58,116 bases of DNA from a virus (UHGV-0195737), one strand, 5' to 3'; shown: positions 29,336 to 56,503, counted from the stretch's first letter. The notes: a model not told the origin generated them from the letters alone. A program made the numbers and translations.

Positions 29336-29345
29336 ATTTCACCTC

Positions 29346-30108: not shown

Positions 30109-30110
30109 AA

Positions 30111-30665: not shown

Positions 30666-30941
30666 CAGAATATTCTCCTACGTTGGAAAATATAACCCCC
30701 GTAAATTTTGATACCATCGGGGAGTAAAACAGATATAAAACACTGAAAACGGCGCTTATCAGTACCGTTTCCAGAATTTTATAAATTGGTGGATGGCGCT
30801 TTCTTCTACCCAGGTAGCGCCGACCTGTTAATGGGATGGATGATCCGGTATTACGTGTTTTTGACTATTCCGCCGTCGCTCGCGGGAAGGATTGGCCCGG
30901 TTATGGCTGGCTGGCGGAAACGGCGACACGTCCACGCGCTG

Positions 30942-31424
30942 TTATTCTTTGCGTAAGCACTGCGTATTAATGTAGTCCTGCAATCCGGTGATCTTCGCGT
31001 CTTTCTCTTTTAGCTGCTCTCTGAGGGATAGATAAGCCGATTCAGCGTCGGGAGTGAGTCTACAGGCGGTTCCATCAATGGTGCTGGCGGTGGCGGTGGC
31101 GTCGGACACTCGCACGGGTATTGCGTTGACGTGCAACCGGATAGCACCGCTATTAATACCGCTACGCAGATCGGCAATGTCAGACCTGATAGCTTTAATT
31201 TCATCGTGATACCTCTTATCAAGTTTTGACAGTTCGGCGTTTCGCTCCTTCATTTGCTGTATGGTGTTACTTGCGGTTTTTAAAGCGCCTTGCGTTGTCG
31301 TTAGTTCAGTCTGTAACGTGTTTACAGTTGACTGGTAGTGACAAAGCGCGGCGGTGAGTCCGGCAACAATGCAAACAACCACGGCGATGATTAACGCCTT
31401 TATCTTGTCCACGTTTCCCCCCAT
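30942..31424 (-). CDS. Rz: Rz-like i-spanin
   Basis: N-terminal TM helix then coiled coil; directly after endolysin. Confidence 0.65.
31010..31204 (-). CDS. Rz1: Rz1-like o-spanin (embedded, +1 frame)
   Basis: Embedded in Rz; lipobox LSGC; proline-rich mature region. Confidence 0.55.
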   Translation of the reverse strand: MKLKLSGLTLPICVAVLIAVLSGCTSTQYPCECPTPPPPPAPLMEPPVDSLPTLNRLIYPSESS

Positions 31425-31891
31425 TCGCAGACGGCATATTCAACATCACGGCGGTTAATTAAACCTTGCCATTTCTGACCACCAGCATATATCCAGCGTT
31501 TAAGCTGGGCGCACGCCTCTGATTTCTTGCCGTCATTGAGTAGTTTTAGTAAGGTTGATGTTTTGAAGTTGGTAGCGCCTACGTTATAGGCGAATGAGTA
31601 AAGCGCGGCGCGGGTAAAGTCGGAGATCTCGACCTTGATATATGGGTCAATAGCTTTCGCCACTTTGTGAAGATCTTTATTGAGTAATGCCTCGCATTCC
31701 GCAGGGGTGTAAGCCTTACCCAACATAATGTCTTTTCCGGTGTGACCATAACAAACGGTCCAGACACCGATAACATCACGATAGGGATCGTACTCCACGC
31801 CCTCCAGCGGTTTAATCATCACGGCAGCAATTGCTATTGCCCCACCCGCCGCTGCCGCCAGAATCTGGCGCTTTAGCGTTTTGCTGATCAT
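31400..31891 (-). CDS. SAR endolysin (T4-lysozyme-like, GH24)
   Basis: N-terminal Ala/Gly-rich SAR helix; lysozyme-type EG...D...T...GHT signature. Confidence 0.8.
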
Positions 31892-32100
31892 AATTTTTTC
31901 ATCTCCAGGTTGTGCCTTTCCTGCTCCCGCTTATTCTCCTGTCGCTTGTAATACCAGTTAACCGCGAAAGTGCCTATCGTGCACCCGATACCAACTATCA
32001 CGGCTATGTCATTCAGGGATAAACCGCCAATTATGGTTGTCAGAATACCAGCTACATAGCTTGCGGCCTCCCTTGTTCGCGTAATTAACGTGGCGATCAT
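31888..32100 (-). CDS. Holin (pinholin-like, class II)
   Basis: 70 aa, two TM helices, charged C-terminus; overlaps endolysin start. Confidence 0.65.
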
Positions 32101-36186: not shown

Positions 36187-36373
36187 CGTCACCCCGTTTG
36201 TAAATATGGACTGGCTTAACAGGGATGGCAGGTAACTCGCCGTCGTGTAACGCGCTTGCTATTTTCAAAATTAAATGCGCTTCTGTACCAGTGACTTTCT
36301 TACACCATGCGCCGCCTGTTTTATCTTCGAACAAGATAACAGCGAACTGATCGTTTATTTCCAGCTTATCCAT
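36173..36373 (-). CDS. Hypothetical small protein
   Basis: 66 aa; start overlaps Q stop. Confidence 0.4.
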   Translation of the reverse strand: MDKLEINDQFAVILFEDKTGGAWCKKVTGTEAHLILKIASALHDGELPAIPVKPVHIYKRGDDDEA

Positions 36374-37095
36374 TATTCACCCCGTGTCACTCGCTTGATT
36401 TCGCTTTCCGCGCGGGCTTCCTCTTTGAATAGCTCCGCTATGGCGTCCTCATAGAAAACCCGATATTTTTTCCACCACGTTGATCGGCTTACCGGAAAAA
36501 CAAGCTGATTAACCGCCTGCCGAACAAGATCTACCGGGAAACGTGAGTACCCACGCCCGCCGCAGTGCTGGCACGTTTTGAAAACTGGCATTTCCGCCGC
36601 GTTGCTGGCTGCTTTATCCGGTATCTCGCCGCGCCCTTTGCATTGTTTACAATGGTTGCGAACTTTCCCATGCCCCTTGCATTTTTTGCAAAGGTGTTTT
36701 TCCCCGTAGTCGTCAAACGTAAATTTATATCCGCCGCACTCCATACAAGTTTTTTCCGTAGCGGCGCTTTGGCAATAATCCCTAAACGCGAAAACGGCAA
36801 CAAGAATAATAAGTCCATTGCGCTGATCCTCGTTTAACTCCATGACGTATTCGTAATCTTTTGCCATAGCCCTTAAACGCTCTGTAAGCAATACTACGGC
36901 CTTGTGTTTTTCGGCTTGCGATAGTTCCATCTTCCCTAAAAAAGCGCTATAGCCAAGCTCTACGCGCGATTGCGCCATACCAGCGGCGGTAAGTGCATCC
37001 GTCGTATTAAGCGCATCCGGGGATGTTCCCCGGCTTTCGTCTGACAATCGCGGTGATTTAGGAAAGTGGAATTTTAGAATGGATTCTAAATTCAT
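36373..37095 (-). CDS. Q: Late-gene antiterminator Q
   Basis: N-terminus close to lambda Q as recalled (LESxxKFHxPKSPxxSD, AxGMAQS); CxxCxGxG zinc-finger repeats. Confidence 0.75.
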   Translation of the reverse strand: MNLESILKFHFPKSPRLSDESRGTSPDALNTTDALTAAGMAQSRVELGYSAFLGKMELSQAEKHKAVVLLTERLRAMAKDYEYVMELNEDQRNGLIILVAVFAFRDYCQSAATEKTCMECGGYKFTFDDYGEKHLCKKCKGHGKVRNHCKQCKGRGEIPDKAASNAAEMPVFKTCQHCGGRGYSRFPVDLVRQAVNQLVFPVSRSTWWKKYRVFYEDAIAELFKEEARAESEIKRVTRGE

Positions 37096-37277
37096 TATTT
37101 ACCCCCGTAACGCGCCGCCAGGTGTTTACGGTCAGAAATGGATTGCACCATCTTTCGCTCAAGCTCTTTTAGCGCAAGCAATTCGCGCATATGAAAAGCC
37201 TGGATTTGTCGGATTGTTTCTAAATCATGTTCCTCACGCTGAATATCTATTTGCAGATCTTTAATTTCGTTTTTCAT
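37095..37277 (-). CDS. Hypothetical coiled-coil small protein
   Basis: 60 aa; overlaps Q start. Confidence 0.35.
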   Translation of the reverse strand: MKNEIKDLQIDIQREEHDLETIRQIQAFHMRELLALKELERKMVQSISDRKHLAARYGGK

Positions 37278-37681
37278 TGCTCACCCCACATATTAGTCGC
37301 GTATTCGTCAATATCCGGTAGCAGGTCGCCGCGTTCGCGTACCTTAATAAACAATCGCCCGCCTTTTACCTTCCGGCAGCGTACAATTTTTATTGCGTCG
37401 ATTTGTCCATCATCTTTCCAGAATCCGGCATAAGTAAGGCTATCAAAAAGGCATTTAGGGAGATTATCGAGATCCCTGGTCCGGTTATCCGGCGGCGCGG
37501 CATAAATGGCGATTGCCAGTCGGCAAGATAGGTTAATATTTAAATTCAATAGCTCGATAATGTCTTTTACTTGCTCCCGGTACTCCTTCCCCACTTTGCT
37601 GATATAGTGAAAACCGCGCGAATGCCTGTAATAGCGGTTATTGGATGGCGGGTAAGGCAGGCTAAAAGTATATTCATTCAT
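37274..37681 (-). CDS. rusA: Holliday junction resolvase RusA
   Basis: LPYPPSNNRYYRHSRG and RDLDNL motifs. Confidence 0.8.
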   Translation of the reverse strand: MNEYTFSLPYPPSNNRYYRHSRGFHYISKVGKEYREQVKDIIELLNLNINLSCRLAIAIYAAPPDNRTRDLDNLPKCLFDSLTYAGFWKDDGQIDAIKIVRCRKVKGGRLFIKVRERGDLLPDIDEYATNMWGEQ

Positions 37682-38283
37682 GCTGCCTTTCTCCTTAAGG
37701 CGTCCAATTTCGCCTGATAGATGTTTATTAACTCCTTACATTCTGCGATCGTCCATTTATGCGTATCGTTGTTGTTCTCCAGTGCTACCACCCTAGCGAG
37801 GCCAATTTTTCGAATCAGTGCCGGGCGATACCCTCCTATGTTTCCGTCTAATGTCTGGTTGCAGTGCCTGCATTGTTTATGGCAATTATCCTCGTTAAAG
37901 CGAAGGTGTCCGGCGGCGGCAACCGTTCTGTAGTGGCCTGCATCCCACCCGCATTGCTCACCGTAGTAAGTCCCGCAGGATATACACGGCAACCGCGCAT
38001 CACGTTCGCGGATATAGGCATTGAATACATTTTGAACTTGTTTGATCCAATAACTACGCGGATTTAACTGTTTACGCTTCCGGTTGCGTTCTTCCCGCTG
38101 GCTATCACGGCGTTTCTTCCGTTCCATAGCCTTCATAGCCTTCTCACGGTCGCGGCATAGCTGGTCAAATTTCAATTCTTCCAGGCATTCGTCACTGCAC
38201 CACGTCTGGTTGTGATATTTAGGCTCAAAAAAAACGCCGCAGCACTTGCAACGGCGTCTTATGGGTTTTTTAGGGTTTTGCAT
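37678..38283 (-). CDS. ninG: NinG/Rap-like recombination protein
   Basis: RRRCKCCGxxF start and CISCG, NEDNCHKQCRHCN Cys motifs; start at internal ATG with SD GGGGTGGA. Confidence 0.7.
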   Translation of the reverse strand: MQNPKKPIRRRCKCCGVFFEPKYHNQTWCSDECLEELKFDQLCRDREKAMKAMERKKRRDSQREERNRKRKQLNPRSYWIKQVQNVFNAYIRERDARLPCISCGTYYGEQCGWDAGHYRTVAAAGHLRFNEDNCHKQCRHCNQTLDGNIGGYRPALIRKIGLARVVALENNNDTHKWTIAECKELINIYQAKLDALRRKAA

Positions 38284-38297
38284 AAAGTCCACCCCAA

Positions 38298-38474
38298 TTA
38301 TTTTCGATATTCGATTTCGTTCGGCTTTGCGGCGGCTCCGGCCCTTAGCCAATGATCTACGCATTTGTTGCACTCGTTACAATCTCCTTTGTCGGGGTTA
38401 CATAAATTGCACATTGCCCGCATTACGCATTCGCGCTCGTAGTCGTCATGCCACGCGTACCTATCATCGTTCAT
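38298..38474 (-). CDS. Small Cys-rich protein (putative zinc-binding)
   Basis: 58 aa, not in track; strong SD AAGGAG; CxxC-type cysteines. Confidence 0.4.
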   Translation of the reverse strand: MNDDRYAWHDDYERECVMRAMCNLCNPDKGDCNECNKCVDHWLRAGAAAKPNEIEYRK

Positions 38475-38556
38475 GATTTATTCTCCTTCTGTCAGGTGAT
38501 ATATTTCCGCATTTCAGCGGGGCCAGGTTTTTAAAGAGCATTTCGTTTGATTGCAG

Positions 38557-38635
38557 TATACAAAATGGATACGCCCGGACAAGATGAAAAGCGCCATTAT
38601 GTGACGCTCATCACACAATGACGCCATTTTGTAAA
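38557..38635. promoter_or_regulatory. Intergenic element A with CRP-consensus palindrome
   Basis: TACAAAATGG...TGTGACGCTCATCACA...CCATTTTGTA; ~80% identical to element at 42417-42475. Confidence 0.4.
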
Positions 38636-44130: not shown

Positions 44131-44393
44131 TTGCCACCCTCCGCAATGAATTTATCAAGCCATTTATTATTCGCCAGACGTTCGGCGTCTTCGCCAAATG
44201 ATTTACGGTTACTTAATTCCTGGCGAGTAGGGAAAGGCCATTTATCCACCCACCCCGCAGACGTTTCGAATTCATAGTTACCGCCGCCGAAATCAATAAA
44301 GACGTCACTATCATCAAGACTTTCCGCAGTCCTCTGAAAACCTCTGCCGTTATTTTCGCTTAATGTTGTAGCTGTCATGATTCGATACCTCAT
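44127..44393 (-). CDS. Hypothetical protein
   Basis: 88-aa ORF. Confidence 0.4.
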   Translation of the reverse strand: MRYRIMTATTLSENNGRGFQRTAESLDDSDVFIDFGGGNYEFETSAGWVDKWPFPTRQELSNRKSFGEDAERLANNKWLDKFIAEGGK

Positions 44394-44671
44394 TAATCGT
44401 TAATAACCTGGCCCATACGCCCGCGATATTTGCGCATACGTGGATCGACATATTCAGGCCACTGCATATCCGGTTTTCTTTGCAGCGGGTAAAAACTCGC
44501 TTGCCAGTTGTCAAACCAGATTTGCTTTGCGTACAGGTCACTAAATCTTTTCGCCATTCGTTCCGCTGCCGTGCCACATAAAAAAAGCCCCCGATCGATT
44601 TGATCGCGGGCTTCTTTTAATACTTGCTCTTTTGTTCGTGGCGGCGGTGGCGGTTTTAAATAATCACCCAT
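44393..44671 (-). CDS. Hypothetical protein
   Basis: 92-aa ORF; Pro-rich N-terminus. Confidence 0.4.
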   Translation of the reverse strand: MGDYLKPPPPPRTKEQVLKEARDQIDRGLFLCGTAAERMAKRFSDLYAKQIWFDNWQASFYPLQRKPDMQWPEYVDPRMRKYRGRMGQVIND

Positions 44672-44687
44672 CGCTAACCTATTGATT

Positions 44688-45107
44688 CTAAAAAGGAATA
44701 TCGTCGTCGAAGTCCATCGGCGGAGGATTGTTCCCGTTATTATTCTGCTGCTGCGGCGGCGCTTTCTGCTGCTGGCCTTGCTGCTGGCCCTGCTGGTTAA
44801 CGTTCATGAATTCGAATTCACTGACCGCTACTTCTACAGCCGTTCCCTTCGTGCCGTCGTTCCGGTCATATTGCCGAACATCCAGGCGACCGCTTACCAC
44901 TATCTTTCCGCCCTTGCGGATATGCGGCGCTAATTTTTCCGCACGCTCACCAAATACCAGGCAAGTGATCCACATTGTCCGCTTATTATCGCCGTAGCCA
45001 TTCGTTACAGCTAACGAGAAACTACCAATCGCTTTTCCGTTTTGCGTGTAGCGAATTTCCATGTCGTTTCCGATATTTCCGCCCAGCGTGATTGAATTTA
45101 AACTCAT
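44688..45107 (-). CDS. ssb: Single-stranded DNA-binding protein
   Basis: OB-fold-sized N-terminus, Gln/Gly-rich linker, canonical acidic tail DFDDDIPF. Confidence 0.85.
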   Translation of the reverse strand: MSLNSITLGGNIGNDMEIRYTQNGKAIGSFSLAVTNGYGDNKRTMWITCLVFGERAEKLAPHIRKGGKIVVSGRLDVRQYDRNDGTKGTAVEVAVSEFEFMNVNQQGQQQGQQQKAPPQQQNNNGNNPPPMDFDDDIPF

Positions 45108-45748
45108 TAATTAATCTCCCCGTTAAGCTCTTTTAAGCGAATGTCATAAACGTCTTTCGCTTTTTGTTGTTGTTCTGAATCTTTAGGCAGTAGCTTCCAG
45201 CACTTGCCGAAGATCTCGCGCAATTTGTTCGCGTCCGGCGCTTTCGCTGCCGCATCACAGAAACGTGCTAACACTTCATCAGGATTTGGTGGCGCTTTCT
45301 GCTGCTGCGGTTGTTGTTTTGGCGGGTTTTTCTGCTGGCGTGGCTGTTGATTTGTCTGTTTAGCATAAGCATCAGTATCAGCGTCTTTCGCGTCGTCTAT
45401 GCAGAATAAACCGTTCAAGGCATATTTCCGCGCGTAACTTGATGTTGCTCCTGTTAGCTGGCTTGCATCCATACCGCGCTTGTTTTCTTCCTCCCTTGCG
45501 TAAGCAGTTACCGCTATTGCGTCCTCGCCGTCGCTTAATGTCGCAGTGGCTTTAACGTAATAACGCTCACCAATCAGGATAATTTCATCATTCAGCGTTA
45601 GTGTGACATTTTGAAGTAGCGGTTTAACCGCTTCCAGAATATCCTCCGCTGAACGATAGCTATAACCCCCGAAGTTATTACGCTGATTCTTAGGCGCGTT
45701 AAGCGTCTGCTGAATCGTCCACAGTTTCTTGTGTAGCTCTGTTTTCAC
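45107..45748 (-). CDS. erf: Erf-family single-strand annealing protein
   Basis: GGYSYRSAEDI-type ERF signature; Gln/Pro-rich linker; GTG start with SD AAGGAG. Confidence 0.65.
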   Translation of the reverse strand: MKTELHKKLWTIQQTLNAPKNQRNNFGGYSYRSAEDILEAVKPLLQNVTLTLNDEIILIGERYYVKATATLSDGEDAIAVTAYAREEENKRGMDASQLTGATSSYARKYALNGLFCIDDAKDADTDAYAKQTNQQPRQQKNPPKQQPQQQKAPPNPDEVLARFCDAAAKAPDANKLREIFGKCWKLLPKDSEQQQKAKDVYDIRLKELNGEIN

Positions 45749-45897: not shown

Positions 45898-46188
45898 TTA
45901 ATGGTATCGGACTTTATCGAGGGGTTTTTCCCCAAGCTGGCGCGGCTGCGTTGCGTGAAAGTAGTTGCCGCTTTCATTTTCCTGATACCATTTTGTTGCT
46001 CCCTTGCGACGTCCTTTAACGCTATTTGGTTCGCATTTTTCCTCATTTGCAAAGCGAATAGCTTTTTCCACTCTATCAACCTTCTGTATGTGCGGGCCTT
46101 CATCTTGCTCTGCTGCCCGTTTCATCCGTCGGCGGGCGCGGGCGTTAAGTTTGCTCTCACAGTTACCGTAAGTAATTTTCGCATTCAT
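45898..46188 (-). CDS. N: N-like transcription antiterminator
   Basis: Arg-rich motif ARARRRMKRAAEQ near N-terminus; resembles P22 gp24 as recalled; nut-like site upstream. Confidence 0.5.
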   Translation of the reverse strand: MNAKITYGNCESKLNARARRRMKRAAEQDEGPHIQKVDRVEKAIRFANEEKCEPNSVKGRRKGATKWYQENESGNYFHATQPRQLGEKPLDKVRYH

Positions 46189-46218
46189 AATCTTATTTCC
46201 TTAGTTGAAATTTATGTC

Positions 46219-46252
46219 TGCACATTTCAGTGCAACCGGATTGTTAAAGAGC
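46219..46252 (-). promoter_or_regulatory. nutL-like site (boxA + boxB hairpin)
   Basis: Minus strand reads GCTCTTTAACAAT (rrn/lambda boxA-like), then hairpin TGCAC-TGAAAT-GTGCA, about 30 nt before N start. Confidence 0.45.
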
Positions 46253-46417
46253 ATTTTCAAACTTCCTTTTTTCTACTGCCTTCCCTCCTTTGACTCGCAA
46301 TATACGCCCCGTGATATGTTGAGTCAATCCATTTTGTATACTTTTTTAAAATATTTTCTATCTCATTGATATTCAAACAATAAAAACTGTTTTCGGTTTA
46401 CGTTTTGGTGCTTTCCG

Positions 46418-46444
46418 GGCAAAGAAAAGCCGCCATCCGGCGGC
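46418..46444 (-). terminator. Terminator after repressor gene
   Basis: GCCGCC-GGAT-GGCGGC stem followed by TTTTCTTT on minus strand. Confidence 0.55.
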
Positions 46445-46450
46445 TAATGT

Positions 46451-47098
46451 TTATGGCAGGTTTACGATCTTTGCATCCACCACCACGCCAATAATTTTTG
46501 ATTCAGGGTTTAGCGGGATTGGTGGGTACAGCGGATTAAGCGAACGTAAAAGCCTTTGACCTCCATCAATGATTAACTGTTTAAACGTCGGCGTTTGCCC
46601 TTCCTCCAGTTGGGCTATAACCAGTTTGCCGTCAATAGCTGGCGCGTGCGGATCGACAAGTATCATCGTCCCTGCCGGGATACTTAATCCCTGCGGTGCG
46701 TTCATTGACTCACCTTTTGCGACCAGCCAATAACTATCATCCGAACAAATCACGCTCGTGTTAACGTGTGGTAGTAATGCGCGTTTTGCTTCTTCCATGT
46801 AGTTTCCTGCGTCTTTCCAGTCAATAACCGGATAACGTCCCACGTCGAGCGGCGGCGCTCCCGGCAACGTATTTGAAACTGAATCATCGATAACCATCCC
46901 GTCATGAGTGACCGTAAACTGCCGACGACCAAGCGCCCGCATAATCCGCGCAATATCTTCAAGATTTGGCTCGCGGCGACCATTCAGCCAGTGAGATAAG
47001 CCGCCTTTTGTGATCCCCATGAGATCCGCCAATGAATCCTGGCTCATGCCTTGCGCCCGCATGAGTTGTTTTGCTAAGTCATACCATTTTGTTTTCAT
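46451..47098 (-). CDS. CI-like repressor (HTH plus LexA-type S24 peptidase domain)
   Basis: N-terminal HTH (QDSLADLMGITKGGLSHWLNG); C-terminal AKGESM serine motif and downstream Lys. Confidence 0.75.
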   Translation of the reverse strand: MKTKWYDLAKQLMRAQGMSQDSLADLMGITKGGLSHWLNGRREPNLEDIARIMRALGRRQFTVTHDGMVIDDSVSNTLPGAPPLDVGRYPVIDWKDAGNYMEEAKRALLPHVNTSVICSDDSYWLVAKGESMNAPQGLSIPAGTMILVDPHAPAIDGKLVIAQLEEGQTPTFKQLIIDGGQRLLRSLNPLYPPIPLNPESKIIGVVVDAKIVNLP

Positions 47099-47126
47099 AT
47101 CGCTACCCTATCGCCCTAAAAAGTTT

Positions 47127-47222
47127 GATGCAAGTCACAAAATGTATTTTTCAAGCCTTGACCGAAAAACACCATTCTGTAAACTTGCAGACAAGGTAAA
47201 GCCGGACTTGCAAAGACGCAAG
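47127..47222. promoter_or_regulatory. Operator/divergent promoter region
   Basis: Inverted repeats TCAAGcCTTGA, CTTGcagaCAAG, CTTGCaaagacGCAAG, plus TGCAAGTCA/GACTTGCA pair. Confidence 0.4.
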
Positions 47223-47265
47223 AAAAAAGATGAGGGAATAGCACAAAAAGGCGCATACCTTAAAA

Positions 47266-47298
47266 GCTCTTTAAAAACCTGGTGTCGCTGCGAAGCGA
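47266..47298 (+). promoter_or_regulatory. nutR-like site (boxA + boxB hairpin)
   Basis: GCTCTTTAA then 10 nt then TCGCT-GCGA-AGCGA hairpin, upstream of the first plus-strand gene. Confidence 0.4.
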
Positions 47299-47405
47299 AA
47301 AACAAATATCACGCAACGGCGGGATCTGTTGAGCGGTCAATCACTGCTACCTAATGCTAATGGGATACCCGCCCGCGCGTTCATTTTAACCATAGGAGAA
47401 ACACA

Positions 47406-47660
47406 ATGAGTATGCACATGATGAATGAGGCTTGGAAAGTGGAACTTAACAGCCCGATTCAAAAACTTGTCTTAATGGCTCTGGCTGAAAAGGCAGATAA
47501 TCGCCGCCACGCCAGGGTATCACACCAAGAAATCGCAAAAATGTGTGAAATTCCTGTAAGTACGGTGATACTTGCTATCAACGGATTAACACACAAAGGA
47601 TTTATTTGTAACCCTTACCCGGTAAATGACGTTTACCTGGTAATGCTGCCGGAGGAATAG
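47406..47660 (+). CDS. Winged-helix regulatory protein (Cro/CII position)
   Basis: 84 aa; HTH-like segment SHQEIAKMCEIPVSTVILAINGL; first gene of rightward operon. Confidence 0.45.
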   Translation: MSMHMMNEAWKVELNSPIQKLVLMALAEKADNRRHARVSHQEIAKMCEIPVSTVILAINGLTHKGFICNPYPVNDVYLVMLPEE

Positions 47661-47662
47661 AA

Positions 47663-48775
47663 ATGAAGTGGTTTAAGCATGATAGCGATGCGAACCGCGA
47701 TGAAAAACTTCAAAACGTTTTGCTTGATTATGGCCTGGAAGGATACGGGCTTTATTGGTATTGCATCGAGTTAATAGCCTACGAAGTAGATCAACATAAT
47801 CTGACATTCGAACTAAAACACGATGCAAGAATCATTGCCCGGAACGTAGGATCAAGTCCGAAACGTGTAGAAGAAATGATGAGATACTTCATCGAAGTTG
47901 GCTTGTTCGACTGCTCACATGGCGTTGTAAGATGCCTGTCGTTAGCAAAAAGACTTGATCAATCAATGGCTTCGTCAAAAAGCGAATTTAGAGAGGCAAT
48001 TAAAAGGCTAAACGTCAAAAAAAATAAAAAGTTAGATAATCCTTTAGTGGAAGTAAATAATTCACCAGATACAGAAAAAGAAAAACCATGGCACAACCAT
48101 GATGCAGCCATGGCACAACCATGGCACAACCATGGATTAGAAGTAGAAGTAGAAGAAGAAATAGAAACAGAAGAAGAAAAGAAAAATATAAAAAGAAAAG
48201 AAGTCAATCAGGACGGTGACTTTCAGATAAGCGAATCTGCATTGCGTTGCCTGGCTTTCTACAACGAAAAGGCAGGATGCAAATGTCGTGATACTAAGCC
48301 ATTCATCGAACTACTGACAGAAACAAAAACACGTAAGGCATACACGGAGGATGAGATCACATTAGTAATTGAGTGGGCTTTGACGCAATGGCGTAGCCGT
48401 GGTGGAGTGCCTAAGCCTGTTAACATTTGCCGGGTAACTAAGTTTGATGGGTATCTGGCTGATGCTGAACAATGGCGCAAGCTGTCAGCTACTGTAAACG
48501 CTGCCGACGTGGTGGAAGCATTTAACAGCACGTTTGACGGCCTGTTACCACCTGCCGAACTGGATCGGGATATTGAACGTAAGATCCATTCGCTATCTGA
48601 CTACCTGAAAGACAAAAGCGTTGACAGCTTTATTGCTTACTTCCAGAAATTTAAAGCTGATGCGCCGAACTTCTATTTCGGTGAGAATGAAAGCGGCTGG
48701 CTGGCTGATATAGATTTTCTGTTGAAGCCGGAAACGCTCCGCAAGACGCGTAACTTCCAACATATACCATCATGA
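47663..48775 (+). CDS. Replication initiation protein (replisome organiser-like)
   Basis: 370 aa; N-terminal phage replisome-organiser-like region; iterons plus AT-rich tract inside the gene; upstream of DnaB. Confidence 0.6.
   Translation: MKWFKHDSDANRDEKLQNVLLDYGLEGYGLYWYCIELIAYEVDQHNLTFELKHDARIIARNVGSSPKRVEEMMRYFIEVGLFDCSHGVVRCLSLAKRLDQSMASSKSEFREAIKRLNVKKNKKLDNPLVEVNNSPDTEKEKPWHNHDAAMAQPWHNHGLEVEVEEEIETEEEKKNIKRKEVNQDGDFQISESALRCLAFYNEKAGCKCRDTKPFIELLTETKTRKAYTEDEITLVIEWALTQWRSRGGVPKPVNICRVTKFDGYLADAEQWRKLSATVNAADVVEAFNSTFDGLLPPAELDRDIERKIHSLSDYLKDKSVDSFIAYFQKFKADAPNFYFGENESGWLADIDFLLKPETLRKTRNFQHIPS
48086..48200. repeat. Putative origin: iterons plus AT/purine-rich tract
   Basis: CCATGGCACAA x3 plus degenerate copy, then GAAGTAGAAG...AAAAATATAAAAAG. 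Confidence 0.45.
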
Positions 48776-48899
48776 ATTACCAAAAATCCAAAATTACCCA
48801 CAAAACAAGCTCACCAGCGAGCTAAATCGCATTGGGTGCTACACTTGCTTACCTTTTTGCGATTAGCTCGTCAGAGAGCGTTACAGAGAGGATTTTAAA

Positions 48900-49001
48900 A
48901 TGGACGGTAAACACGTTTTCGCCCTGGCTTTTGCCATCGCTGCGGCAATCGCTGTTAACGTCGCCTTGTTCGGCGGTTTGTTCCTTCTAGTCAATCCATA
49001 A
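48900..49001 (+). CDS. Putative hydrophobic microprotein (33 aa)
   Basis: MDGKHVFALAFAIAAAIAVNVALFGGLFLLVNP; SD GAGAGG. Confidence 0.3.
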   Translation: MDGKHVFALAFAIAAAIAVNVALFGGLFLLVNP

Positions 49002-49133
49002 CCTACCTACCAGTCTGTAAATCGAAAATTAGCCACCTGATAGCGTTTCTGACGCAATAAGACACTGCAACCTGTGCAAACGGGTTACGCGGTGGGATTT
49101 TTGCGTTGTAGCGCGTTTTACGGAGAAATTACA

Positions 49134-49904
49134 ATGTCTGAATTAATGGTTTTTGATAACGTTAAAATGAATAGTATTGAAATTTCAGAGTTGGTTGGTA
49201 AGCGTCATGATAACGTAAAACGCACTATCGAGACGCTTGCTAATAATGGGATTATCCGACTTCCTCAAATTGAGGTTTTCGGAAAAATCAATAACTTAGG
49301 ATTGATTCGTGGCGTGGACGCTTACGTTTTTGAAGGGGAGGAAGGCAAGCGAGATAGTATTATTGTGGTCGCACAGCTTTGCCCTGAACTTACGGCGCGG
49401 ATCGTTGACCGCTGGCAGGAACTTGAAAACGCAGTCCGGCAAAATGCTGTTCCAAATTACGGTAACACACAGATCAGTAATGTTCTTGCTTTTGCTGAAA
49501 CGGCGGGCCGAATGCTGAATATGAGTAATTCAGGTAAGTTAGGTATGCTACAGAAGATTGAGAAGGAATATAATATTCCTCCTATCCTTCCGCATTACGC
49601 TATTGACGCTCCTTCTGATGCTGTGGACGGATCAAGCCGCGTGACCAAATCACTGACAGCATTGTTAGAAGAAAATAACGTTGGCATGACTGCGCGTGAA
49701 GTTTACCCAATCCTTGAACGCAAAGGCATTGTCGATCGCAAGTATCGTAAAGCAAAATGCGGAGAAAAAAGATTCTGGAATGTAACTGTGTATGGTCTGC
49801 GATACGGAAAAAATATAACCAACCCATCTAATCAGAGAGAAACACAGCCGCATTTTTATGAATCAAGATTTAAAGAGTTATTGAATATTATTTTTTCTGA
49901 ATGA
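49134..49904 (+). CDS. Rha-family phage regulatory protein
   Basis: N-terminal SELVGKRHDNVKRTIETL matches Rha family signature; SD GGAGAA. Confidence 0.6.
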   Translation: MSELMVFDNVKMNSIEISELVGKRHDNVKRTIETLANNGIIRLPQIEVFGKINNLGLIRGVDAYVFEGEEGKRDSIIVVAQLCPELTARIVDRWQELENAVRQNAVPNYGNTQISNVLAFAETAGRMLNMSNSGKLGMLQKIEKEYNIPPILPHYAIDAPSDAVDGSSRVTKSLTALLEENNVGMTAREVYPILERKGIVDRKYRKAKCGEKRFWNVTVYGLRYGKNITNPSNQRETQPHFYESRFKELLNIIFSE

Positions 49905-49937
49905 GTATACATTCCGTAAACCGGAGGAAATAACGTT

Positions 49938-51056
49938 ATGTCACAGAGAAAGATCAGCGATGAGCAACTGATCGCTGAGTACAACAAGGGGAAGACTTAC
50001 AAGCAAATAGCCGAAGAATATGGAATGGCAAAACGCAACGTCGAACGCCTGGGCGCACGGCTGGCTAAGCGCGGTTTAATATCCACGCGCCGCGCTCCTG
50101 GCTTCGGTGTTAACGGTGAATCATTGCTCGTTGATAAGGATGGCAATGTAATCATGCGCTGGATTAAAACGGCCCGTGACCGTGAGGAAATGGAAAGGCT
50201 AACGCAAGCGGCTTGCGACGCATTCACGGAAGAAATACCACGCGCGGAGGTAGTGCCAGTGCCGGAAATTGATTTCCAAAAAAGCCTGGCCCTTTATCCG
50301 GTATTCGATCTGCATATCGGGGCGCTTGCACATAAAGCTGAATGCGGAGAAAGCTACGACACCGGGATCGCCGAACGCGTGCTAAATGACTTCTTCGACT
50401 ACGCGGTAGGCGCTGCACCAACGTCTGAGAAGGCTGTTTTGCTTCTCGGAGGCGATCTACTTCACTCTGACGGGATGATCCCGGTTACACCGACAAGCGG
50501 GCATATTCTTGATCAGGATAGCCGCTACGCAAAACTTGTTTATGTGGCGATCCGGTCGGTCCGGCGTGCGGTGGGGAAAATGTTGTTAAACCATAAGGAC
50601 GTCGAGATACAAGTGTTATCCGGCAATCACGATCAGTCGGGGATGATCTGGCTACGTGCGGCGCTGGCGGCTTTTTACGAGGATGAACCGCGCGTAACGG
50701 TTGATGTATCACCTGCTATCGTCCACCACACGCAGTACGGTAAAACATTCCTTGCTTATCATCACGGGCACACCATCAAAAAACCCGAAAATTTGTTAGC
50801 TGCCTGTGTTTCTGACTGGCGGGAGGACTTCGGCAAGTCGGCGGCGGTTTACGCTCACACGGGGCATCTGCATCATCAATCTGTCGTAGAAACATCATTA
50901 GGGATCGTTGAGCACCACGGCACGTTAGCGGGTAAAGACGCTTATTCAACGAATGGCGGTTGGCGGTCGCGGCGGCTGGCGGCGGTGATAATTTACAGCC
51001 CGGATTATGGGGAAATCGGGCGCTTTGTTTATTACCCTGAATATTCCATTTTGTAA
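49938..51056 (+). CDS. HTH - metallophosphoesterase fusion protein
   Basis: N-terminal HTH (YKQIAEEYGMAKRNVERL); calcineurin-like phosphoesterase motifs DLH, GGDLLH, GNHD, HHGH, GHLHH. Confidence 0.55.
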   Translation: MSQRKISDEQLIAEYNKGKTYKQIAEEYGMAKRNVERLGARLAKRGLISTRRAPGFGVNGESLLVDKDGNVIMRWIKTARDREEMERLTQAACDAFTEEIPRAEVVPVPEIDFQKSLALYPVFDLHIGALAHKAECGESYDTGIAERVLNDFFDYAVGAAPTSEKAVLLLGGDLLHSDGMIPVTPTSGHILDQDSRYAKLVYVAIRSVRRAVGKMLLNHKDVEIQVLSGNHDQSGMIWLRAALAAFYEDEPRVTVDVSPAIVHHTQYGKTFLAYHHGHTIKKPENLLAACVSDWREDFGKSAAVYAHTGHLHHQSVVETSLGIVEHHGTLAGKDAYSTNGGWRSRRLAAVIIYSPDYGEIGRFVYYPEYSIL

Positions 51057-51074
51057 ACCGGAGGCGACGCCATA

Positions 51075-52496
51075 ATGATAACTGAGCAAGTAAACTCATT
51101 GCGGCAAGAAAGGGAATCGGCGGTTATTGGTGGACTTCTGTTAGGCGGGCTTACCCCTAACGCGCAAGATGTTCTTGCTACACTCGATCCAGAAGTTTTC
51201 ACTATTCCGCTATACAGACGGGCGTTCGAAATTATCCGGGCGCAAGCCAGAAACAGAAATCTCATCGATGCGTTATTGGTTGGCGATGAAATCGGTAACG
51301 AAAACTTCATACCGCTGATGCAAACGGCGCGATCGTGTCCTTCGGCTGCCAACCTGAAAGGGTATGCCGAATTATTGCAGGAAGAACACCAGCGGCGGCA
51401 AATGTTGGACCTGATAGAAGATATTCGCTACAAACTGGAAACGGGTACGCTTGAAGTTGTCAGGGAAACGATGAAAGATTTTGATTCCCGGTATTCAAAA
51501 TTAAAAGTAACGAAAGGCGAAATCCTCCCGGTGCTGTTGCGCGACGCGGTGCAGGAATACACGGAAGTGCTAAGTAAGCGCATGGAATGCGGCGTAAACT
51601 CCGACAACATCAAAACAGGGATTGACCCACTCGACGAAATGTTAGGCGGCATTAACGCCACTGATTTAGTGCTCATCGCCGGACGTCCGGGATCTGGTAA
51701 ATCGGCGTTAGCGTTGGCAATTGCCCGCGCGGCGGCTGAGAGACCTTACCCTGGCGGCGAAGGAAATCGTGTCGGTGTTTTGCTCTTTACGCTTGAAATG
51801 TCGCTCGATCAAATAACTGAGCGGGCCATCGCTGGTGCGGGGAATTTATCAACGGATTGTTTGCGTAATCCGGTAAAACTTGACGATGAGGGGTGGGCGC
51901 ACGTCGCCCAGGGTATGAGCGCCCTCGCCGATCTCGACGTATGGATTGTTGACGCATCGCAGTTAACGGTCGAGGAAATACGCGCCACCACCGAACGTAT
52001 GAAACAGGACCATCCCAACCTGGGAATGGTAATGATTGACTACATCGGGTTAATGAAGCTGGCTAAGGCCGAACGTCATGATCTTGCCGTAGGGCAATTG
52101 TCGCGGTCATTGAAAATGATGGCGAAGGAATTGCGCGTACCAGTGGCGGCGCTGGCGCAATTATCCCGCCGCGTTGAGGAACGACCGAACAAGCGCCCGA
52201 ACAATTCTGATCTGCGTGATTCCGGTAATCTGGAGCAAGATGCGGACCGGATCATCATGGTCTACCGTGATGGCTACTACAACGAACAATCTGTTGCCCG
52301 CGAATATATGGAGATCATCGTTTCAAAAAACCGTCACGGGAAAACGGGCACTGTTTACCAGCGGTTTGACGACAACGGCAATATCTTACCATGTGACCAG
52401 GCCCGCGCGGCGTCCGCTTGCATCCAGTCAATGCAACAACGTCCGGCGGCAAGCCGATTCTCCCCACGAAACAACCAGAATAACTCATCCTTTTAA
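51075..52496 (+). CDS. dnaB: Replicative DNA helicase (DnaB family)
   Basis: Walker A GRPGSGKS, Walker B LGMVMIDY; 473 aa. Confidence 0.85.
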   Translation: MITEQVNSLRQERESAVIGGLLLGGLTPNAQDVLATLDPEVFTIPLYRRAFEIIRAQARNRNLIDALLVGDEIGNENFIPLMQTARSCPSAANLKGYAELLQEEHQRRQMLDLIEDIRYKLETGTLEVVRETMKDFDSRYSKLKVTKGEILPVLLRDAVQEYTEVLSKRMECGVNSDNIKTGIDPLDEMLGGINATDLVLIAGRPGSGKSALALAIARAAAERPYPGGEGNRVGVLLFTLEMSLDQITERAIAGAGNLSTDCLRNPVKLDDEGWAHVAQGMSALADLDVWIVDASQLTVEEIRATTERMKQDHPNLGMVMIDYIGLMKLAKAERHDLAVGQLSRSLKMMAKELRVPVAALAQLSRRVEERPNKRPNNSDLRDSGNLEQDADRIIMVYRDGYYNEQSVAREYMEIIVSKNRHGKTGTVYQRFDDNGNILPCDQARAASACIQSMQQRPAASRFSPRNNQNNSSF

Positions 52497-53315: not shown

Positions 53316-53513
53316 ATGAACAAGGATTTAGAATTGACCGTGGAGGATTTAAGCACTATTGCGGAATACAAGCGCCGCGGTGATCCTGATATGCCTGTTA
53401 CGGTTGATATGGAATATTTAAAAGGCGCTTTTATGACAAGCTCGCGGCTAATTTCTTTGCAGGCGATTATGTACGCGCGCGCACAATGGAAAAATAGCAA
53501 CGGTGTATTATGA
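53316..53513 (+). CDS. Hypothetical small protein
   Basis: 65 aa; SD GGGGAG. Confidence 0.4.
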   Translation: MNKDLELTVEDLSTIAEYKRRGDPDMPVTVDMEYLKGAFMTSSRLISLQAIMYARAQWKNSNGVL

Positions 53514-53941
53514 GGCAAATTAGATTTGAGATAGTTAACGACGCCGTGAAAGAAAATGCTATCAGGCAGATAAGGGAGATCCAGCCTGATAGCAAAAGCC
53601 CGCTGATAATTACCATTCAGGAGAAAACCCGCTCACTGAGTCAAAATGCGTTGTTATGGGCGCTACTAACCGATGTTAGCGATCAGGTTAACTGGTACGG
53701 CAAGAAGCTGTCGCCGGAAGACTGGAAAGCAGTATTTACTGCCGGGCTTAAGAAATATGGCGTCGTCCCCAATCTGGATAAATCCGGCTTCGTTGTATTG
53801 GGAACATCCACCAGTCGAATGAGTAAATCAGAATTCAGCGAACTAATCGAATTGATTTATTCGTTCGGCGCGGAGCATGGCGTTCAGTGGTCAGGTGATA
53901 CGAAATTAAACGAGGAATTTATAAAACGCTGGGGGCAATAA
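53510..53941 (+). CDS. ninB: NinB/Orf-family recombination mediator
   Basis: RSLSQNALLWALLTDVSDQ and SPEDWK motifs typical of NinB. Confidence 0.65.
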   Translation: MRQIRFEIVNDAVKENAIRQIREIQPDSKSPLIITIQEKTRSLSQNALLWALLTDVSDQVNWYGKKLSPEDWKAVFTAGLKKYGVVPNLDKSGFVVLGTSTSRMSKSEFSELIELIYSFGAEHGVQWSGDTKLNEEFIKRWGQ

Positions 53942-54131: not shown

Positions 54132-54788
54132 ATGAATAAATCAAAAGTAATCGGTATAATTAGCCATCGCACTAACCCTGAATGCTACCCATCGTTCGAA
54201 GTATCGACATGCAGGGAAGAATATAATTTTGGATCATGCTATTTAGTTGGTGTCCGCGCTGATACTCGCGGCACTTATTCTGTTATGGCGGCAAGCTGGA
54301 AGTTTGATAAATATGCCAATTTATCTAATAAAGATGATGATGGCATGAATAAAGAAAGTGAAATCATTGACGAATTAATCGAAGATGAGCGGCATGATTG
54401 CGATACGCCAGAAGTTACGGAATGGATGGCAGGAGAAAAGCCGCCATGCGGAGTATGGCTTGAGCTTCTAGATCCTGTCGATGGTCGGAAATATGTTATT
54501 CTGAAATACAAGTATATAAGTGATCGCCTTGCTCTTTTTGTAGAAATGGATGCGCCTGATTTTGAACAAGCCGGGGAATGGAAGCCTTTCGCTCATAAGT
54601 TGTATGTAGATCCGAAAGAAAAAATACTGGCTGAAATTGCGTTTGCACTTGCCACTAAGGTTATCGGTGAAGACGCAGCAAAAGAAATTAATTTTAACCG
54701 CGACAATGAGTTTTCACACGATTATCGCAACATGGCGCAAGCTATTATTGATGGATGTATCGGACACGTCGAATACACGGGGAAATGA
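54132..54788 (+). CDS. Hypothetical protein near int
   Basis: 218 aa from ATG with SD GAGGA; acidic. Confidence 0.4.
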   Translation: MNKSKVIGIISHRTNPECYPSFEVSTCREEYNFGSCYLVGVRADTRGTYSVMAASWKFDKYANLSNKDDDGMNKESEIIDELIEDERHDCDTPEVTEWMAGEKPPCGVWLELLDPVDGRKYVILKYKYISDRLALFVEMDAPDFEQAGEWKPFAHKLYVDPKEKILAEIAFALATKVIGEDAAKEINFNRDNEFSHDYRNMAQAIIDGCIGHVEYTGK

Positions 54789-55027
54789 ATATGATCAGCG
54801 ATAAGGAAACGACGATACTAATCACGACGGAAAATATCTGTAAGATGTTAGGTGGCATTAGCCGGGGAACGTTTTACAAGTGGCGTAAAGCGTGGAAGAA
54901 CAGCGGAACACCATTCCCCGCGCCCGCTGCTCTCCCCTTCCCCGGATGTAACCACCTTTACCGCTATCAGGACGTTATGCGGTTTTTTCATGAGCGCGGC
55001 TTAATCTCAACCAGGGATAAAACATAA
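54785..55027 (+). CDS. xis: Excisionase / AlpA-like DNA-binding protein
   Basis: ICKMLGGISRGTFYKWRK HTH typical of Xis/AlpA; convergent overlap with int. Confidence 0.6.
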   Translation: MNMISDKETTILITTENICKMLGGISRGTFYKWRKAWKNSGTPFPAPAALPFPGCNHLYRYQDVMRFFHERGLISTRDKT

Positions 55028-56181
55028 TCAGCCCACTTATTCATCGCTTCTTTTTGCTCATCAATGTAGTCATATTTATCATAAACGGCTAACACGCCTG
55101 ATAGGGCGTGGCCTAATACTTTCTCCGCTATGTGCGGTGCTACTCCTATAGCTGCTAAATGAGTGCGGCATGTCCGGCGCAAGTCATGACATGACCATGC
55201 CTCACAATTCATTATGCTGTAAACGGATAGCGCCGCTTTCTTGATTACGGTTTTACACGCTGGCTTATCTTCCTGTGATCTCGCAGGGGGTAACAGGTGC
55301 TCTTTATCATGCGCCGCCATAATTTCACGCAATAAAGAGACGGCGTAATCAGATAATCCCCTTCTAATCAGTCGCCGGGTTTTTGATATTTCAGCCGGGA
55401 CCGTCCACACACCATTGTCTAAATCAAAATGCGATCTCTTTGCATCCCTCAATTCAATGACACGGCAACCAGTAAGTAACAGCAATTTAAGCGCGTACTT
55501 ATGCAGGCTGTAGATCCTCGACCTTTCCACGGCACGCCAGAACTCCACAATTTCATCCGTTGATAAATACCGCTCACCGACGCCGGGCGTGTTTCCAATA
55601 TCAATAACGCGAACATTTTTTATTGACTGGCTTGTAACCATATCTCGCCTGATGGCGTTATCAATTACGATCTTCATTCGCTTTAACACTATTCCGGCCT
55701 GTACGGGGTAGCCCGCCTCCGTTATCTTCGAAAATATATCCATCCATTGACGCGTCGTTATATCGTCAACGATATAAAAACCGTAGTCTTTCACTACATA
55801 GCGTTGTAGAAAACTTTTAATATCCCTGTAGTTAACAAGTTTTTTGACGTTGGTCATTGAGAGATAATCATCAATCACATCACTGATCGTCTTCTTCTCC
55901 TTCTCCCCTTCTATCCGCTGCTTCAATACTGTTGCCGGATTCTTCCCCTCCGCGAGTATCTCCTTGCATTCTGCCACCGCCGCGCGGGCTTCTTTTAGCG
56001 ACATGATGCCATAGTCGCCCAGCTTCAAGCGCACTGGTTTACCATTGAAACGATAGCGGTACTGGAATGTAATTTTCCCCTTCGCACTTACCCTGGCTGA
56101 TAGTCCGCCAGCGTCCGCCAGTTCATCCGGCCCGGTGTACGCCTTCCCGGCGATGGCTCGTAATTTCGTATCAGACAACAT
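54988..56181 (-). CDS. int: Tyrosine integrase (phage integrase family, arm-binding N-domain)
   Basis: C-terminal HDLRRT, LGH and Tyr motif; N-terminal arm-binding-like domain. Confidence 0.85.
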   Translation of the reverse strand: MLSDTKLRAIAGKAYTGPDELADAGGLSARVSAKGKITFQYRYRFNGKPVRLKLGDYGIMSLKEARAAVAECKEILAEGKNPATVLKQRIEGEKEKKTISDVIDDYLSMTNVKKLVNYRDIKSFLQRYVVKDYGFYIVDDITTRQWMDIFSKITEAGYPVQAGIVLKRMKIVIDNAIRRDMVTSQSIKNVRVIDIGNTPGVGERYLSTDEIVEFWRAVERSRIYSLHKYALKLLLLTGCRVIELRDAKRSHFDLDNGVWTVPAEISKTRRLIRRGLSDYAVSLLREIMAAHDKEHLLPPARSQEDKPACKTVIKKAALSVYSIMNCEAWSCHDLRRTCRTHLAAIGVAPHIAEKVLGHALSGVLAVYDKYDYIDEQKEAMNKWADYVLSLVEIKPRS

Positions 56182-56329: not shown

Positions 56330-56503
56330 TGAACGCGAATAAACAAGGCGAGATCCTTTTTGGCGAAGTGGTATCAGCAGCGGCAGACGCACGGGTATTT
56401 GTCGAAGGCCGCTGGCAGTTTGATGATGATAAGCTCAATACGTTGCATCATTTAGGTGCTGGCACGTTTGTTACCAGTGGTAAGCGAGTTACCGCGGGCT
56501 AAA
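56330..56503 (+). CDS. Hypothetical small protein (flank)
   Basis: 57-aa ORF MNANKQGEILFGEVV...; outside prophage. Confidence 0.25.

Follow-up and report, generated by a model that had tools for sequence, protein, structure and literature searches.

The stretch of DNA analysed here (58,116 nucleotides, from the virus UHGV-0195737; hereafter the window) is very probably an E. coli prophage that belongs to the mEp021-like "mEpimmI" phages, with its modules in the order that is conserved throughout that group. The unusual gene order is real but ordinary: it is the published layout of the mEpimmI temperate E. coli phages, an architecture that has been in GenBank since 2018 (MH706966) in a group described in 2023-2025. 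It is therefore not the peculiarity of a single sequence as which it was initially presented, being conserved in a described set of phages that includes mEp010, mEp013, mEp044, mEp515, mEp554, MagusPhagus and about 40 E. coli prophages (Front Microbiol 2025, PMC11893012).

Modules and strands of the two arms

The strand and identity of all modules named in the preliminary description were checked with Pfam and PHROGs (Table 1). The minus strand was found to hold cI, the N-like gene, erf, ssb, abc2, ninG, rusA and Q as well as the genes for lysis, terminase, head and tail. Replication genes, NinB and a putative xis are encoded on the plus strand, in an array that ends at a convergent integrase. 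Wrong strand assignment, which had been named as a possible refutation, was not encountered: strong domain matches on both strands upheld the claim that the late and structural genes share the strand of N, erf and ssb with replication running opposite, and the strand calls likewise agreed with everything except the replication arm being co-directional with cI and N. Of the divergent replication/NinB/xis operon that was proposed to end at a convergent int, the array and the convergence stand; xis is putative, its matches being weak, and the array may form a single operon.

The long (minus) arm runs in the order: N-like gene, erf-ssb-abc2, accessory genes and methyltransferases, terminator, third nut site, ninG-rusA-Q, lysis and head/tail. 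Small ORFs fill the ~4 kb from Q to the holin gene, starting directly after Q without a gap, and several terminators lie among them. Each arm has terminators on its sense strand, and one terminator, at 88-111, stands between the late operon and int in the circular phage. For a late (Q-dependent) promoter no position in the window could be assigned. The tail region is broken by a few short plus-strand gene islets. Two 1325-aa ORFs were considered as a duplication and rejected as such, since they are J and the side fibre, which are unrelated proteins.

Table 1. Features located in the window, with strand and supporting matches (E-values where given)
Feature	Position	Strand	Evidence or remark
Lysis, terminase, head and tail genes	141..32100	-	co-directional with N and Q
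Islet, Cor-like	5925-6308	+
J tail tip protein	7266-11243	-
Further islets in tail region	13346-14289; 15543-16087; 18594-19183	+
Large terminase	27369-28853	-
Lysozyme	31400-31891	-
ninG, rusA, Q block	36373..38373	-
Q antiterminator	36373-37095	-	Pfam Antiterm 1e-28
RusA	37274-37681	-
NinG	37678-38373	-	1.4e-66
Third nut site	38507..38539	-	boxA GCTCTTTAAAAA + boxB CCGC-TGAAAT-GCGG
Strong intrinsic terminator before nin-Q block	38590..38625	-	16-pair stem; matches TERM_4 of mEp021
erf-ssb-abc2 recombination module	44393..45748	-	directly downstream of N
abc2	44393-44671	-
SSB	44688-45107	-	6.3e-25
ERF	45107-45748	-	2.2e-42
N-like antiterminator, Gp17 homologue	45898..46188	-	phrog_271 3.8e-9
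nut site, N arm	46219..46252	-	boxA TGCTCTTTAACAA + boxB hairpin TGCAC-TGAAAT-GTGCA
Predicted sigma-70-like early promoter, N arm	46299..46327	-	TTGACT, 17 nt, TATATT; 10/12 matches
Intrinsic terminator, end of cI transcript, before N-arm promoter	46428..46445	-	matches TERM_1 of mEp021
CI-type repressor, immunity I type	46451..47098	-	HTH_3 2.7e-13; Peptidase_S24 7.4e-20
Predicted sigma-70-like early promoter, replication arm	47158..47185	+	TTGACC, 16 nt, TAAACT; 9/12 matches
nut site, replication arm	47266..47298	+	boxA GCTCTTTAAAAA + boxB TCGC-TGCGAA-GCGA
84-aa stand-alone winged-helix protein	47406..47660	+	HTH_36, N-terminal domain type of O-like initiators; phrog_4617 2e-17
Replication initiator	47663..48775	+	Lin1244/DUF4373 N-terminus; lambda O / P22 gp18-like C-terminus
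Putative origin, within initiator gene	48084..48199		4.7 copies of 11-bp unit AACCATGGCAC
Rha/KilAC antirepressor-like protein	49074..49904	+
Metallophosphoesterase / DNA repair exonuclease-like	49938..51056	+	phrog_704 2.4e-140; RefSeq name
DnaB-type replicative helicase	51075..52496	+	DnaB_C 1.2e-76
NinB/Orf recombination mediator	53510..53941	+	4.5e-47; apart from other nin genes
Putative excisionase (HTH)	54755..55027	+	phrog_1553 4.3e-6; HTH_17 0.0035
Tyrosine integrase	54988..56181	-	Arm-DNA-bind_3 (PF13356); convergent with replication arm
Right prophage/host junction	56358..56362		inside E. coli yddH

On the short (plus) arm, neither cro nor cII was recognisable in the window at the canonical place divergent from cI, and no ORF lies between the replication-arm promoter and the nut site. 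The first gene divergent from cI encodes an initiator-type HTH_36 domain. As judged from its sequence, this 84-aa protein is not a Cro homologue; it shares only 33-37% identity between phages whose repressors are 92-93% identical, and its divergence while the repressors stay alike argues against the sharing of operators with cI. PDB sequence searches with this protein and with the xis-like protein retrieved nothing informative. The 11-bp repeats in the initiator gene (48084-48135) are followed by a purine- and AT-rich tract and constitute a putative origin, by analogy with lambda, where ori lies inside gene O.

The presence on this arm of its own initiator, putative origin, helicase and putative xis, next to an integrase whose Arm-DNA-bind_3 domain we take to recall the integrases of P4-like satellites and islands, could suggest that the arm and int are a separate integrative replicon (satellite or island) that adjoins a prophage. 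We consider this highly improbable, as packaged phages of roughly 54 kb (mEp021, MagusPhagus) carry the arm, the minus-strand ORFs that were examined included no identifiable replication gene, the promoter of the arm adjoins the phage repressor gene and its nut site matches the N-like protein of the other arm.

Comparison with other temperate phages

The module order had been described as unlike that of lambda and P22, and it indeed differs. The window does not have the lambda-type order int-xis-recombination-N-cI / cro-cII-O-P-nin-Q-lysis-structural, and the synteny comparison that had been advised gave collinearity with mEp021, whereas the canonical order was found in Cronobacter phage ENT47670. 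The latter has RecT, N and CI in one direction and replication, DnaB, NinB, RusA, Q and lysis in the other; in the window RusA, Q and lysis come after N and erf. What is shared with the lambdoid phages includes: the gene families, among them N- and Q-type antitermination genes; a CI-type repressor between divergent early promoters; boxA/boxB nut sites for N-type antitermination; Q ahead of the lysis and structural genes; and an O-like initiator with the (putative) origin inside its gene. The DnaB-type helicase and the erf/abc2 recombination module are shared with P22. The differences are that the segment formed by recombination, N, cI, initiator, helicase and NinB lies opposite relative to ninG-rusA-Q-lysis-structural and xis, that there are three nut sites instead of two, that cro and cII are absent and that int is convergent with xis, whereas the lambdoid int is co-transcribed with it.

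An ordinary lambdoid prophage of which genes or strands had been mis-assigned is barely credible as an explanation: cI, N-like, erf, abc2, O-like, DnaB, NinB, NinG, RusA and Q do come from the lambdoid gene pool, but strong domain matches support the strand calls on both strands, RusA, Q and lysis are on the replication side in the canonical ENT47670, and the group is classed as non-lambdoid by its authors (PMC11893012). The same paper reports that the group neither hybridises nor recombines with lambda.

A short early operon for replication and excision, divergent from the repressor and separate from the late genes, is found in P2 and 186. In these phages the first gene (cox or apl) encodes a dual Cro/excisionase protein, replication relies on another type of genes, an Ogr/B-type activator turns on the late genes and int is co-transcribed with the repressor. 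The window would resemble them only in the short arm divergent from the repressor, with its replication and putative excision functions; the other P2/186 features appear to be absent.

The early region showed 84-87% nucleotide identity over 48-67% of its length to seven phages (mEp554, mEp010, mEp044, mEp515, mEp013, mEp021 and MagusPhagus), beyond which no early-region match was found among 50,697 phage records. Over the compared span of mEp021, the window was collinear from ~8.3 to 56.2 kb (tblastx), and a megablast match ran down to window position 61. The annotations of mEp021, mEp010 and MagusPhagus have the order and strands of the window, and the agreement extends to 44 of 44 loci in IMG/VR whose repressor shares 90% identity or more. 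One locus was 100% identical at all markers within its span, its contig stopping before xis and int; the order was unchanged in a more divergent metagenome contig with an N-like protein of 64% identity, and three window proteins have matches of 100% identity in a public metagenome phage. The GC skew ranges from -0.09 to -0.20 across 32-46 kb and from +0.08 to +0.105 across 48-54 kb, with its sign flipping at the strand switch; as it tracks the strand of each arm, the orientation is old. The skew switch, the collinearity with mEp021 and the agreement of the IMG/VR loci together show that the layout is neither chance nor assembly error. A misassembly, or an inversion that arose recently in this strain alone, has a practically negligible probability as the explanation of the reversed replication arm and is refuted by the collinearity and the 44 loci. 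Nothing specific speaks for it other than that an 8-9 kb opposite-strand block is a pattern that misassembly could give, but seven independently sequenced phages and the 44 contigs have the identical order, the skew follows each arm and the promoter/nut region is continuous and 88% conserved across the switch point.

Of the features tested for membership of the mEpimmI group, the repressor type, the Gp17-type N, three nut sites and core-gene synteny were found in the window, and integration at one of the mapped sites was not. Gene order and strands are alike genome-wide, as are Q, lysis, the siphovirus structural genes and the convergence of int with the xis-like gene, whose 3' ends overlap (by 40 bp in the window and likewise in mEp021 and mEp010). 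Nus dependence, Rep021 exclusion and siphovirus morphology are traits reported for the group (PMC11893012). Unlike mEp021, the window has an 84-aa HTH protein and an initiator N-terminal domain of another type (36% identity), for which MagusPhagus is closer (61% and 70%); it has a Rha/KilAC gene, in a slot that is variable within the group, where mEp021 has the zinc-ribbon gene gp12; its cI-N spacer is without the ~240-bp insert and gp16 of mEp021; and its integrase is only ~61% identical. As the named phages share only ~85% identity with it, and this over roughly two thirds of the region, the window is, by this measure, a distinct species within the group.

The right flank matched the yddH locus of the E. 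coli chromosome with 99.8% identity, and yddH is none of the three sites mapped for the group (ydaM, abgT or mppA, with integrase types I-III; a group property and no strict criterion; PMC11893012). The window integrase falls in a 7-member cluster and may be the unmapped type IV of that paper.

Control region and nut sites

The repressor is 93% identical over 198 aa to Rep021 of mEp021, which confers immunity (PMC11893012), with an identical HTH region. The predicted early promoters on either side of it belong to a class of matches that is no commoner in the window than in shuffled sequence; the hexamers of the N-arm promoter are kept in the alignment of related phages, the replication-arm promoter is conserved in four of four aligned phages, and the regulatory intergenic regions are 88% conserved in the four-phage alignment. 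Repeats and four-phage alignments yielded no convincing repressor operators: ACAAAATGKAT (three copies), CTTGCA/TGCAAG and the inverted repeat TTGACTC...GAGTCAA over the N-arm promoter were each unconvincing in the alignments. The repressor search retrieved no relatives among the GTDB species-representative genomes. A locus with a distant cI relative (L053) carries cro and cII divergent from cI.

The N-like protein is 72% identical to Gp17 of mEp021, which is reported to be an N-like antiterminator that acts on three nut sites (PMC11893012). A Gp17-type N-like protein with conserved arginines 17, 19, 20 and 24 is a criterion for the group (PMC11893012), and the translated arginine-rich motif of the window protein has R17, R19, R20, R21 and R24. 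There are five copies of the boxA core GCTCTTTAA (0.57 expected), three of which are on the sense strand with boxB hairpins. The other two, at 17140 and 41424 (+), are antisense to the local genes and without boxB hairpin, and were taken as chance matches. The position of the N-arm nut site is conserved in relatives, the replication-arm site is invariant in the four-phage alignment, and the third site is alignable with the latter over ~50 nt. Among the sites nutL, nutR1 and nutR2 of the group, one separates the repressor from the divergent arm, one precedes the N-like gene and one comes after the methyltransferase genes (PMC11893012); the three sites in the window sit at these positions, and so do those in other loci. 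A search of Rfam with the 36-58 kb segment (E up to 1) gave no matches. The search with the N-like protein retrieved only 48 clusters; their identity was 60% or more throughout, their sources were E. coli or gut metagenomes, and there were no distant relatives with which the layout could be tested outside the mEpimmI group.

Proposed circuit and origin of the layout

From these elements we infer the operon extents and the following circuit, with its possible consequences for the timing of induction and excision. A CI-type repressor would lie between two divergent early promoters, each directly followed by a nut site, and upon loss of the repressor both promoters would fire. The long arm would supply the N-like protein, which would join RNA polymerase, together with host Nus factors, at each of the three nut sites. 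It would, on the long arm, take transcription past the terminators to Q and hence to the late genes and, in the circular phage, this arm would continue across attP into int on the same strand. On the short arm, N-dependent read-through of the terminators that follow the initiator gene and dnaB would lead to NinB and xis. With two such N-dependent arms, replication and excision would be carried by a different transcript from the one that leads from N through Q to the late genes; lambda, in contrast, has one PR transcript for replication and Q alike.

Compared with ENT47670, the layout resembles an inversion of the whole early segment. We tentatively raise the possibility, for which the chances seem rather less than even, that one inversion of this entire control segment turned a lambdoid genome of the P22/HK97 kind into the mEpimmI layout, with breakpoints that parted ninB from ninF/ninG on one side and xis from the distal end of the N operon on the other. 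If so, N came to be on the transcript with Q and the late genes, replication and excision on the opposite N-dependent transcript, and the switch became CI-based without Cro or CII; the third nut site, which looks like a duplicate of the one on the replication arm, would have been added to carry antitermination across the ~8 kb to Q. In PMC11893012 the word 'inversion' has no matches, and 'cro' occurs only in domain names and in background on lambda.

The layout itself adds little beyond the published mEpimmI description. The group would represent a natural rewiring of the lambda circuit, useful as a comparison when asking which share of lambda's decision circuit can be dispensed with. For annotation, an expectation of lambda order would lead to the first plus-strand gene being mislabelled as cro and to replication being placed upstream of Q.

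Genome layout and membership of the mEpimmI group

The ORF listing and domain searches of the window yielded the gene layout collected in the table, in which modules and strands are as the preliminary description had put them: late and structural genes on the strand of N, erf and ssb, with the replication genes running the other way. Its further claim, that replication genes, NinB and xis form a divergent operon ending at a convergent int, held for the layout (the 3' ends of the integrase and xis-like genes overlap by 40 bp), with xis as a putative excisionase (weak matches only). In MagusPhagus the last tail-fibre gene is directly followed by int in the same direction, and the circular phage genome of the window reads likewise, with a strong terminator (111-88) between these two genes; only the replication arm of ~8 kb thus opposes the rest of the genome. 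GC skew, positive across 48-54 kb, is negative wherever early and late genes lie on the minus strand, so the orientations are of long standing.

Features of the window, by strand and function
Feature	Position	Strand	Remarks
CI-type repressor	46451-47098	-	HTH_3 + Peptidase_S24
Intrinsic terminator	46445-46428	-	between repressor and N-like gene
Predicted promoter, N arm	46327-46299	-	TTGACT-17-TATATT, consensus-like
Nut site before N-like gene	46252-46219	-	boxA + boxB
N-like antiterminator	45898-46188	-	
erf, ssb, abc2	downstream of N-like gene	-	domain searches
Accessory genes, ~5 kb	between abc2 and ninG	-	incl. two DNA methyltransferases
Terminator-like hairpins, long arm	41365-41339; 38625-38590	-	second: 16 pairs
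Third nut site	38539-38507	-	boxA + boxB; before ninG-rusA-Q
ninG, rusA, Q	36373-38373	-	
Small ORFs, ~4 kb	between Q and holin	-	
Holin, lysozyme	after small ORFs	-	
Terminase, head, tail genes	last (tail-fibre) gene ends at 141	-	
Tyrosine integrase	54988-56181	-	Arm-DNA-bind_3
Predicted promoter, replication arm	47158-47185	+	TTGACC-16-TAAACT, consensus-like
Nut site before replication genes	47266-47298	+	boxA + boxB
Winged-helix protein, 84 aa	first gene of replication arm	+	
Initiator, 370 aa	second gene	+	Lin1244/DUF4373 N-terminus
Rha/KilAC-like protein	after initiator	+	
Metallophosphoesterase/exonuclease	after Rha/KilAC-like gene	+	
DnaB helicase	after metallophosphoesterase gene	+	
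MarR-like protein	between DnaB helicase and NinB	+	
NinB	after MarR-like gene	+	
HTH protein, 90 aa (xis-like)	last gene of arm	+	weak excisionase similarity
Terminator-like hairpins, short arm	48960-48977; 52515-52543	+	

The same order and strands were found in the synteny comparison, both in the GenBank annotations of mEp021, mEp010 and MagusPhagus (int; on the opposite strand xis-like, NinB, helicase and initiator; then repressor, N-like, erf, ssb, ninG, rusA, Q, lysis and structural genes) and, for the markers that each contig spans, in all 44 IMG/VR loci collected with the repressor as anchor (≥ 90% identity). Megablast of both window halves against 50,697 phage records matched seven genomes and no others (mEp554, mEp010, mEp044, mEp515, mEp013, mEp021 and MagusPhagus; 80-87% identity), and by tblastx the window is collinear with mEp021 in reverse orientation from ~8.3 kb to 56.2 kb, the span corresponding to the portion of mEp021 included in the comparison. 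These phages belong to the mEpimmI group, described as Nus-dependent and non-lambdoid and comprising 48 genomes whose architecture is conserved, with a CI-like repressor shown to confer immunity (Rep021) and an N-like protein reported active at three nut sites (Gp17) (PMC11893012); UV induction is reported to be lacking. Identity to Rep021 is 93% for the window repressor; the N-like protein, whose arginine-rich motif is intact, shares 72% with Gp17. Its family is a small one of 48 clusters, none below 60% identity and each from E. coli or gut metagenomes, and a divergent member shows the same local layout. One IMG/VR relative (L008) is 100% identical at all markers within its span, its contig stopping before xis and int, and the integrase, N-like protein and initiator are identical to DAI96609.1, DAI96681.1 and DAI96684.1 of a public metagenome-assembled phage. 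As an architecture, the layout has been described before and is the hallmark of a known phage group; the sequence, too, was public beforehand.

The GenBank start of the mEp021 repressor (gp15, 11218-11814 in locus L001) leaves out 17 N-terminal residues that complete HTH_3; the 215-aa form annotated in MagusPhagus and mEp010 corresponds to the window ORF. The minus-strand tail region is broken by short plus-strand islets (5925-6308, 13346-14289, 15543-16087 and 18594-19183), one of which carries the gene for a Cor-like superinfection exclusion protein; 13829-14077 encodes 82 aa that match mEp021 gp71 (annotated 'putative antirepressor') at 100% identity. Two ORFs of exactly 1325 aa encode unrelated proteins whose equal length is a coincidence: 1932-5909 a side tail fibre with a C-terminus that is lectin-like, 7266-11243 the tail tip protein J.

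Control elements of the two arms

The repressor gene is flanked by the two predicted promoters, both kept in the four-phage alignment, and a nut site lies directly 3' of each. Five occurrences of the boxA core GCTCTTTAA in the window compare with an expectation of 0.57. Of these, three are in the sense orientation and lead into a short boxB hairpin whose loop is TGAAAT or TGCGAA. The resulting nut sites, the third of which is immediately 3' of the 16-pair terminator, match nutR1, nutL and nutR2 of mEp021 as PMC11893012 summarises them, and their relative placement recurs in other loci. Both arms carry terminator-like hairpins in the sense orientation, among them those in the table. From this arrangement we infer that loss of the repressor would open both promoters, and that the N-like protein, a product of the long arm, would modify polymerase on both arms, allowing read-through to Q and hence the late genes on the long arm, and to helicase, NinB and the putative xis on the short one. 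The layout may plausibly affect the timing of induction and excision, as proposed beforehand.

The cI-N spacer (46189-46450) is ~240 bp shorter than in mEp021 (11815-12317 in L001) and MagusPhagus; it is without their small gp16 ORF, the nut site directly following the promoter. At the position of this nut site mEp021 has a degenerate boxA, its own nutR1 being further downstream.

The first divergent gene and the replication arm

The initial contrast with lambda and P22, in which replication, nin, Q, lysis and structural genes 'all follow cro', implied a cro gene, and none is present: the stretch from the plus-strand promoter to the nut site holds no ORF, and there is no cro or cII homologue anywhere around the repressor (47099-47405 and 46189-46450). 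The first plus-strand gene begins at a distance of 307 bp from the start codon of the repressor, and its 84-aa product (Pfam HTH_36) is not a Cro homologue: the match is to the DNA-binding domain at the N-terminus of O-like initiators (phrog_4617 at 2e-17, over residues 1-69 in each). Across relatives the identity of this product ranges over 33-100% against 90-100% for the repressor. Its type switches in step with the initiator N-terminal domain, and such variation points to an origin-specificity module rather than to a protein that shares operators with the repressor. In the control, a distant repressor relative (L053; repressor 38% identical), a canonical cro (HTH_3) and cII (Phage_CP76) precede an HTH_36/DnaT initiator. 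The group description (PMC11893012) does not discuss an absent cro and mentions no cro or cII homologue for these phages.

At its C-terminus the initiator shows homology to lambda O, HK97 gp54 and P22 gp18. Its gene contains 4.7 tandem copies of the 11-bp unit AACCATGGCAC (48084-48135), with a purine- and AT-rich tract after them; together (48084-48199) they form a candidate origin, which would resemble the lambda origin-within-initiator arrangement. The ~360-nt gap 3' of the initiator gene (48776-49133; no Rfam match) is kept in mEp021, although the next gene differs. It holds the hairpin at 48960-48977 and a hydrophobic 33-aa ORF (48901-49002); the matching gap of MagusPhagus and mEp010 has annotated ORFs of equal length.

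Relation to the lambda plan and the integration site

The closest NinB outside the group (59% identity) is that of Cronobacter phage ENT47670, which has the canonical order: RecT, N-like and CI on one strand and replication protein, DnaB, NinB, RusA, Q, holin and endolysin on the other. Compared with it, the block of erf, N and cI with initiator, DnaB and NinB is reversed in the window relative to ninG-rusA-Q-lysis and xis. A single inversion would interconvert the two orders and account for the split of NinB from the other nin genes; its two breakpoints would separate ninB from ninF/ninG, and xis from the far end of the N operon. The third nut site can be aligned with the replication-arm nut site over ~50 nt, closer than either is to the N-arm site, consistent with a duplication that restored antitermination en route to Q. 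A simple inversion leaves the convergent int unexplained, which would have to be a separate change. The group description does not discuss an inversion (PMC11893012); the residual novelty is modest and lies in reading the layout as inverted and Cro-less, and in attachment at yddH.

The right prophage/host junction was located at 56358-56362, inside E. coli yddH, and the right flank shares 99.8% identity with the E. coli chromosome, which identifies the host as E. coli. Attachment sites mapped for the group are only ydaM, abgT and mppA, with integrase type IV (ctx8n3, BK020724.1) left unmapped (PMC11893012). The window integrase, identical to DAI96609.1, belongs to a 7-member cluster, so yddH may be the type IV site. 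Copies of the motif TTTGGTCACNNTTTGGTACACA flank the attachment region on either side (62-83 and 56196-56217), one of them just 15 bp ahead of the int start codon; the two probably serve integrase binding as arm-type sites, and int could be autoregulated through them. The host flank (56819-58116) carries AT-rich hypothetical genes (GC 0.37) and an ISAs1-family transposase remnant, because of which it matches thousands of E. coli records.
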